DNA from: Escherichia coli
GTDB taxonomy: Bacteria > Pseudomonadota > Gammaproteobacteria > Enterobacterales > Enterobacteriaceae
Assembly (NCBI RefSeq): GCF_044324785.1
Contig: NZ_CP172127.1
Strand: one strand, 5' to 3'
DNA: 64,000 bases
Below are positions 6,849-7,095 of the stretch, piece after piece (position 1 is the stretch's first letter; every line of letters starts with the position of its first letter). Below the pieces are notes generated by a model. That model did not search any database, was not told where the DNA came from, and worked only from the letters and a program-made list of their open reading frames with translations. A program made the position numbers and the translations under genes.

Positions 6849-7095
6849 ACAAAATCTGTGCGTTAACGCTCCCTAACACAGGTAGCCAGGTATTTTATAA
6901 ATCTCTGTATTTTGTTGTCACTTCGATTCCGCGATTCAGCATATCGAACCAGATAAAATGATTACAACAAACCACAAGAAAGAGGGATTATAGCGTCAAA
7001 AGAATTCGAATTGCACATGGGGGCCTCATTGGTGGCCTCAAAAATAACAAACACAAAACAATCAATATAAAACAACTTGTTATACAACCAGTTTC

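Follow-up and report, generated by a model that had tools for sequence, protein, structure and literature searches.

The spacer between parE and attR of an Escherichia coli pheU island: a probable integrase-distal arm of a phage P4-type attachment site

Genomic islands at the tRNA-Phe genes pheU and pheV of Escherichia coli end in a short direct repeat of the tRNA gene, and the DNA just inside that repeat is the subject of this analysis. The locus lies in the window, by which we mean the whole stretch of 64,000 nucleotides that was analysed. The genes next to the spacer and the repeat that closes the island, all on the plus strand, are as follows:

5324-6190, plus strand: DUF4942 gene, confirmed against Pfam
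6262-6525, plus strand: parD (Pfam ParD_antitoxin, E 3.9e-17)
6522-6848, plus strand: parE toxin gene, an open reading frame matching Pfam ParE_toxin (E 7.9e-18), which ends in TAA at 6846-6848 and borders the spacer on the left
7096-7114, plus strand: attR core ATTCCGAGTCCGGGCACCA, a 19-bp direct repeat of the tRNA-Phe 3' end

A preliminary description of this DNA had placed a non-coding, island-terminal spacer at 6849-7095, and its borders proved exact: parE ends at 6848 and the attR core starts at 7096. The spacer is indeed non-coding, in that its largest open reading frames encode only 41 amino acids (minus strand, TTG start) and 26 amino acids. When aligned with pheU of K-12, ATTCCGAGTCCGGGCACCA at 7096-7114 agrees at every position with the final 19 nt of the gene, and the pheU-cadC interval of K-12 runs collinear with the window from position 7115 to the start of cadC (7731); therefore 7096-7114 is the attR of a pheU island, and the island-terminal position given to the spacer is correct. 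The core also fits the TTTCATTCCGA..CACCA class of attR sites given in PMC11537424. A scan of the whole window for tRNA and tmRNA genes with ARAGORN found none, so the intact pheU and the island integrase must lie upstream of position 1.

Comparison with other genomes divides the spacer into a left part linked to parDE and a right part that recurs more widely. The features used in this comparison are:

6849-6888, plus strand: right flank of the parDE cassette, without a counterpart in the AbiE-type or ynjB-type island ends in alignments
6888-6897, plus strand: second copy of a 10-bp direct repeat, AGGTATTTTA; the first, at 6194-6203, closely follows the DUF4942 stop
6922-6931, plus strand: TTCGATTCCG, exactly matching a 10-mer in the T-loop/T-stem of tRNA-Phe; it sits on the left edge of the conserved arm
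6924-7095, plus strand: conserved island-terminal arm, present in 1,136 of 5,426 genomes and lying behind different last cassettes

Five complete E. coli genomes contain the whole 247-bp spacer at 100% identity, and 468 genomes cover 80% or more of its length. Several hundred further genomes match query positions 76-247 alone, corresponding to 6924-7095 in the window, without the parDE-linked flank. In a sensitive search, this right-hand 172 bp was present in 1,136 of the 5,426 complete E. coli genomes, almost always on the chromosome. A perfect match in five genomes and a 172-bp arm in more than a thousand mean that the spacer is not random DNA.

The 172-bp arm occurs at the end of a pheV island behind an AbiEi/AbiEii cassette in CFT073, ATCC 25922 and PapRG-04-4, behind parDE at pheV in SMS-3-5, and behind parDE at pheU in strain 1517k. 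A copy with 77% identity directly follows a truncated DUF4942 gene and ends an island between ynjA and ynjB, a location without a tRNA gene; homology to this ynjB-type island extends left to about 6880. The alignment with other pheU and pheV island ends that the preliminary description had proposed as a check finds the arm conserved across ParDE- and AbiE-type ends. Since it is retained behind differing cassettes and at differing loci, 6924-7095 is an island terminus conserved whatever cargo cassette comes last. The left 40-75 bp, from 6849 to about 6888 or 6923, is instead the flank of the parDE cassette and travels only with parDE. The local fold of 6849-6888 is not better than that of shuffled sequences (z 0.08), and parDE homologues on plasmids were matched in their coding part only, among the matches listed.

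Searches beyond E. coli chromosomes were also made. The spacer plus core gave zero matches in 50,697 phage records. A scan of 100,044 GTDB species representatives for GGGCCTYATTGGTGGCCYC returned 9 matches, all non-enteric, in a search that requires the exact 19-mer and that diverged copies would escape. Nine agrees with our rough estimate of the number of chance matches, so the arm looks confined to E. coli in the GTDB representative set.

Two short repeats near the junction of the two parts can be described here. The perfect AGGTATTTTA pair brackets the parDE cassette, and it looks like the signature of an insertion of parDE between DUF4942 and the arm. A cassette-free empty site (DUF4942-AGGTATTTTA-arm) was found in none of the 5,426 genomes, two longer matches being ordinary parDE islands, so the insertion reading is unproven. 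The tRNA-like 10-mer TTCGATTCCG is in attR orientation, 174 bp upstream of attR, and is the single match in the 64 kb, against 0.13 expected. It may be what is left of a core or of an inner attachment site, or else a secondary site resembling a core. Its more specific interpretation as a decayed inner attR left by tandem accretion was rejected, since the arm repeats are absent at the expected distance upstream.

Within the arm, the following features can be listed (distances are to the CCA end of the core):

6976-7041, plus strand: most conserved block of the arm, holding the palindrome and both arm repeats
7003-7012, plus strand: 10-bp perfect palindrome AATTCGAATT, inside that block
7017-7028, plus strand: arm-type repeat 1, ATGGGGGCCTCA, scoring 13.8 bits with the PWM; its GGGGGC starts 95 nt before the CCA end
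7029-7040, plus strand: arm-type repeat 2, TTGGTGGCCTCA, scoring 9.7 bits with the PWM; it follows repeat 1 at 12 bp and precedes the CCA end by 83 nt
7070-7082, plus strand: IHF-like site AAACAACTTGTTA, differing from WATCAANNNNTTR at one position and lying 32-44 nt from the CCA end

The PWM was trained on P4 and left-arm sites only, with right-arm sites excluded, and ATGGGGGCCTCA and TTGGTGGCCTCA have its top two scores in the spacer. The tandem pair, with its GGGGGC core, is oriented as the tRNA. The 64 kb contain a single instance of the pattern GGKGGC-N6-GGKGGC, where 0.02 would be expected, and this Int-type pair is the only set of helically phased repeats in the spacer. Repeat 2 is degenerate (GGTGGC, 9.7 bits), and in the SMS-3-5 allele repeat 1 is altered to GAGGGC. 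Among four pheU/pheV alleles, 94% of the positions in 6976-7041 are invariant, compared with 76-79% in the flanking segments of the arm. Inspection by eye in the preliminary description had found no convincing structured element, and had overlooked the tandem 12-bp repeats at 7017-7040. Elsewhere in the window, PWM matches at 56146-56167 were considered as att sites and discarded, as together they make up a terminator-like hairpin, TTTTGGGGGCGCTTAAGCCCCCAAAAG, one half each, after the 665-aa gene yjcS.

The IHF-like site is the only match to WATCAANNNNTTR in the spacer with one mismatch or fewer. Alone, such a match is not significant (1 observed, 0.44 in shuffles). When five alleles are aligned, the consensus positions are kept and the four N positions are variable. 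The suggestion that the spacer might hold recombination-directionality signals therefore stands in part: signals for recombination are present, as P4-type integrase arm repeats and an IHF-like site, and by their type these would serve integrase and IHF rather than a directionality factor. No gene for such a factor (Xis, Vis or AlpA) was found within the window.

Arm repeats in phage P4 were reportedly described by Pierson and Kahn in 1987. The P4 record NC_001609 annotates 12-bp features named 'attP arm sequence repeat'. On the integrase-distal arm of P4 these are GTGGGGGCACAA and AAGGGGGCATAT (GenBank annotation); the integrase-proximal arm has TTGGGGGCATAA and TTGGGGGCATCT, together with an inverted copy, TTGGGGGCACAT, that overlaps the int start codon.

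The corresponding integrase-proximal arm of the window island, and its integrase, had to be taken from related genomes, as the left end of this island is outside the window. In a closely related island of AHS8C65RI, the left end consists of pheU, 176 bp, and then a gene for a 394-aa tyrosine recombinase. This 176-bp left arm contains TTGGGGGCCCCG and GTGGGGGCTCAT in tandem and an inverted ATGGGGGCTCCT just before the int ATG. In the ynjA-type island of SCU-115, ATGGGGGCATAT and TTGGGGGCCCAT are found at the equivalent place in the left arm, so that matching integrase-proximal repeats (a tandem pair plus an inverted copy) are present in both AHS8C65RI (type A) and SCU-115 (ynjA type). An Arm-DNA-bind_3 domain (PF13356, E 8.7e-27) is present in the type-A integrase, and the enzyme shares 42% identity with P4 Int. 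Genomes with a right arm 99.6-100% identical to that of the window have a type-A left arm and tRNA-Phe on the same strand, 37-106 kb upstream, among them strains 98232, 1223, 144, DSM 103246 and S51. It is from related genomes of this kind that we infer the integrase type of the window island.

The non-tRNA island mentioned above belongs to the same family. In SCU-115 and F1022, an island of about 90 kb with aerobactin, sit and iha genes is situated between ynjA and ynjB, and a short TAAGGAG repeat is found at both of its ends. The pheU type-A enzyme and the integrase of this island share 89% identity, and both arms of the island carry GGGGGC-type repeats.

An island attP can be reconstructed by joining the right arm of the window to the left arm of AHS8C65RI. 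The result contains five GGKGGC repeats, in the same order and orientation as in P4. The positions of the two tandem pairs in P4, in this island type and in the GI-pheV island of APEC O1 are:

Phage P4: distal pair 94 and 82 nt before the CCA end; proximal pair 115 and 127 nt after the CCA end
This island type: distal pair 95 and 83 nt before the CCA end; proximal pair 126 and 138 nt after it
APEC O1 GI-pheV: distal pair 94 and 82 nt before the CCA end; proximal pair 125 and 137 nt after it

The likeness to P4 extends to each part of the site. The attP of P4 likewise uses a tRNA 3' end (leuX, tRNA-Leu) as its core; on its integrase-distal arm, a tandem pair of 12-bp GGGGGC repeats precedes the CCA end by 82-95 nt, and an AT-rich linker has one IHF-like site some 31-44 nt from the CCA end; the only IHF-like match in P4, TATCATTAACTTA, is 31-43 nt from it. 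P4 also shares the second tandem pair with an inverted copy just upstream of int, and an integrase with the Arm-DNA-bind_3 domain. The starts of the left arms are homologous (CTTTCACTTCCAG... in the island, TTCTTACTTCCAAG... in P4).

There are differences as well. The core belongs to tRNA-Phe in the island and to tRNA-Leu in P4, and the proximal pair of the island is 11 bp, or one helical turn, further from the core. The inverted copy immediately precedes the int ATG in the island, whereas in P4 it overlaps the int start codon. The repeat tails are CCTCA in the island and CATAT in P4, and repeat 2 of the island reads GGTGGC. The elements differ greatly in size, a genomic island of 37-106 kb being compared with an 11.6-kb satellite phage. 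In the island arm the conserved stretch also reaches about 90 bp further out, and this extension is without a P4 counterpart. This part of the arm to the left of the repeats (6924-7016), which includes AATTCGAATT, falls outside the P4 model, and the roughly 40 bp at 6976-7016 are as invariant as the repeats themselves. The Vis boxes of P4 are said to have been located by Cali et al. in 2004 on the integrase-proximal arm, i.e., on the other arm.

The P arm of phage lambda has zero sequence similarity to the island arm, and its Xis sites are placed on that arm, unlike the reportedly integrase-proximal Vis boxes of P4. The logic is the same: the P arm of lambda attP contains the arm-type sites P1 and P2 along with IHF sites (Ross & Landy 1982, cited in PMC2951348), and a heterobivalent integrase, held on arm-type sites by its N-terminal domain, is delivered to the core by the IHF bend (PMC2951348). 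KplE1, located at argW, is another tRNA-integrated element of E. coli; the IntS arm-type sites and TorI sites of its attL have been mapped, and the arm-type sites overlap int regulation (PMC2951348). It differs in integrase lineage and in motif, with a TAAA-containing P' site, and its mapped sites are integrase-proximal (PMC2951348). Also comparable are the GI-pheV and GI-pheU islands of E. coli with intP4 integrases, for which PMC11537424 gives integrase alleles and direct repeats of 19 or 23 bp. The window island belongs to their class and has their yee/DUF4942 module as well as their type of attR, TTTCATTCCGA(G/T)TCCGGGCACCA. The passages found in that paper make no mention of arm sites; the present analysis worked out the arm repeats and where they agree or disagree with the type of integrase.

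From the above, we consider it probable, on sequence comparison, that 6924-7095 and the 19-bp core at 7096-7114 form the integrase-distal arm of a P4-type attachment site, which is the attR arm when the island is integrated. Every sequence-level defining feature that was tested for an arm of this kind was found; conservation, repeat motif, geometry, left-arm counterparts and co-variation with integrase type are direct observations. Most of the spacer 6849-7095 would then be the integrase-docking arm of a phage P4-like site, a known and fairly ordinary kind of signal, and the spacer is not a new kind of element.

The way in which such an arm may work is modelled on homology to P4 and on the lambda paradigm (PMC2951348, PMC7286903), and it is by this analogy that Int and IHF are expected to bind and that the arm may be active in this strain. 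A P4-family tyrosine integrase would place its N-terminal arm-DNA-binding domain on the tandem pair of 12-bp repeats (7017-7040). With the A-rich 55-bp linker bent by IHF at 7070-7082, integrase bound to the arm would reach the core at 7096-7114 with its catalytic domains. The complex formed on attR would then synapse with attL, made up of pheU and the integrase-proximal arm with its matching repeats, leading to excision. After excision, the arm 6924-7095 would constitute half of attP and would be needed for re-integration. An excised or tandem attP junction (right arm-core-type-A left arm) was seen in none of the 5,426 complete genomes.

The relation between repeat and integrase can be followed in islands with another enzyme. 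In the GI-pheV island of APEC O1, the integrase-side arm is CFT073-like, and the CFT073 integrase is 43% identical to the type-A enzyme. The repeats of this island are GAGGGTACA on the far arm (units CTGAGGGTACAA and AAGAGGGTACAT) and GYGGGTATA on the integrase side (units GTGTGGGTATAA and TTGCGGGTATAC near int), with the geometry kept. An APEC O1-type right arm with GAGGGTACA repeats was found in 506 genomes. Repeat sequence thus tracks integrase type, with positions fixed, as expected of arm-type integrase sites.

The GI-pheV island of CFT073 has a different composition, in which an integrase-side arm of intP4.1 type (GYGGGTATA) is paired with a type-A far arm (GGGGGC). ATCC 25922 has the same far end, with the AbiE cassette before the arm. 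Of the several hundred genomes that match the arm but not the parDE-linked flank, these two were studied in detail, the integrase side in CFT073 only. Apparently, CFT073-type islands are hybrids with non-cognate arms, and such arms might contribute to the stability of these islands. The mismatched pairing in CFT073 means that the arm persists there without an obviously cognate integrase.

Sequences related to the same integrase type are also found outside the island, just beyond attR:

7115-7270 (context 7115-7400), plus strand: left arm and 5' remnant of an older CFT073 (intP4.1)-type integrase gene, the yjdQ pseudogene of K-12, separate from the window island
7124-7149, plus strand: terminator ('pheU terminator'), within the integrase-proximal arm of the older element
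7237-7248, plus strand: surviving arm repeat TTGCGGGCATAT, in the same integrase-proximal arm

The terminator and TTGCGGGCATAT are assigned to the older integrase-proximal arm because identical sequence follows pheV in CFT073 and APEC O1. With an older integrase remnant downstream of attR, the pheU-cadC interval of K-12 is therefore itself island-derived. In strain 1517k, the parDE-arm-attR end is followed by an intact integrase with a CFT073-like (intP4.1-type) upstream arm and then by a second island; pheU in this strain therefore carries two islands head to tail.

Other interpretations of the conserved block were weighed against the arm. The preliminary description had suggested a small RNA, and a small regulatory RNA or a processed 3' UTR of parDE would be in keeping with 66 bp that are nearly invariant, with GGGGCC-N8-GGCCUC, which could form a 6-bp hairpin (-11.6 kcal/mol), with a perfect TATAAT on the minus strand at 6992-6987 (read by eye), and with a promoter-like site on the minus strand at 6921-6892. 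We nevertheless regard such a transcript as very improbable. The Rfam covariance scan that had been proposed was run over 6000-7800 with permissive filters, and at E <= 10 it gave four chance-level matches, all outside the spacer and zero within it. Relative to dinucleotide shuffles on both strands, the fold of the spacer has z-scores of -0.39 and +0.05 and the local hairpin has -1.47; no z below -1.6 was obtained for the two spacer strands and four sub-segments. A terminator is absent from both strands of the spacer, and a promoter/terminator consensus scan gave the one promoter-like site at 6921-6892 and no promoter-terminator pair within the spacer. The TATAAT lacks a usable -35 and is missing from the ynjB allele, and no outward-facing (Pcirc-like) promoter was seen by eye in the spacer. 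The change of the repeats with integrase type at fixed positions also argues against an RNA hairpin, as the homologous sites in P4 and the left arm, and likewise the APEC O1 pairs, are direct repeats that cannot form one. A UTR of parDE is contradicted by the retention of the arm behind unrelated upstream cassettes. Scarcely credible is a 41-aa protein encoded on the minus strand at 6962-7087: the frame is open in four pheU/pheV alleles, but it starts with TTG, has no ribosome-binding site seen by eye and zero Pfam matches, is broken by indels in the ynjB allele, and has the hydrophobic, T-rich-codon composition typical of the antisense of an A-rich stretch.

A closer competitor accepts the P4-type arm, though by descent only, as a decaying relic that hitch-hikes with the yee/DUF4942 module and is inactive in this strain. 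The missing attP junction in all complete genomes searched would fit a relic, as would the presence of the same arm in islands with the other integrase-side repeat type (CFT073), the degenerate repeat 2, and the mosaic and often stabilised nature of such islands as described in PMC11537424. We consider decay unlikely, however, given that the block with the repeats exceeds the neighbouring segments in conservation (94% against 76-79%), that the ynjB allele, at 77% identity, keeps the repeats, their spacing and the IHF-like consensus positions, and that the 19-bp core reproduces the end of the tRNA gene without a mismatch.

If the spacer is read as a P4-type integrase-distal arm, then arm repeats, IHF-like site and core together chart, in a form that can be tested, the recombination signals that close a very common class of pheU and pheV islands at its far end. 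Sequence alone then suffices to separate cognate from hybrid ends, which bears on predicting which pathogenicity islands still excise. A more tentative proposal, which we think unlikely, is that 6976-7016, with AATTCGAATT, may be the site of some island-encoded accessory factor, or that arm mismatch may lock the widespread GI-pheV of ST73-type strains such as CFT073. If true, a mismatch of arm sites could fix ST73-type pathogenicity islands (CFT073) in the chromosome.
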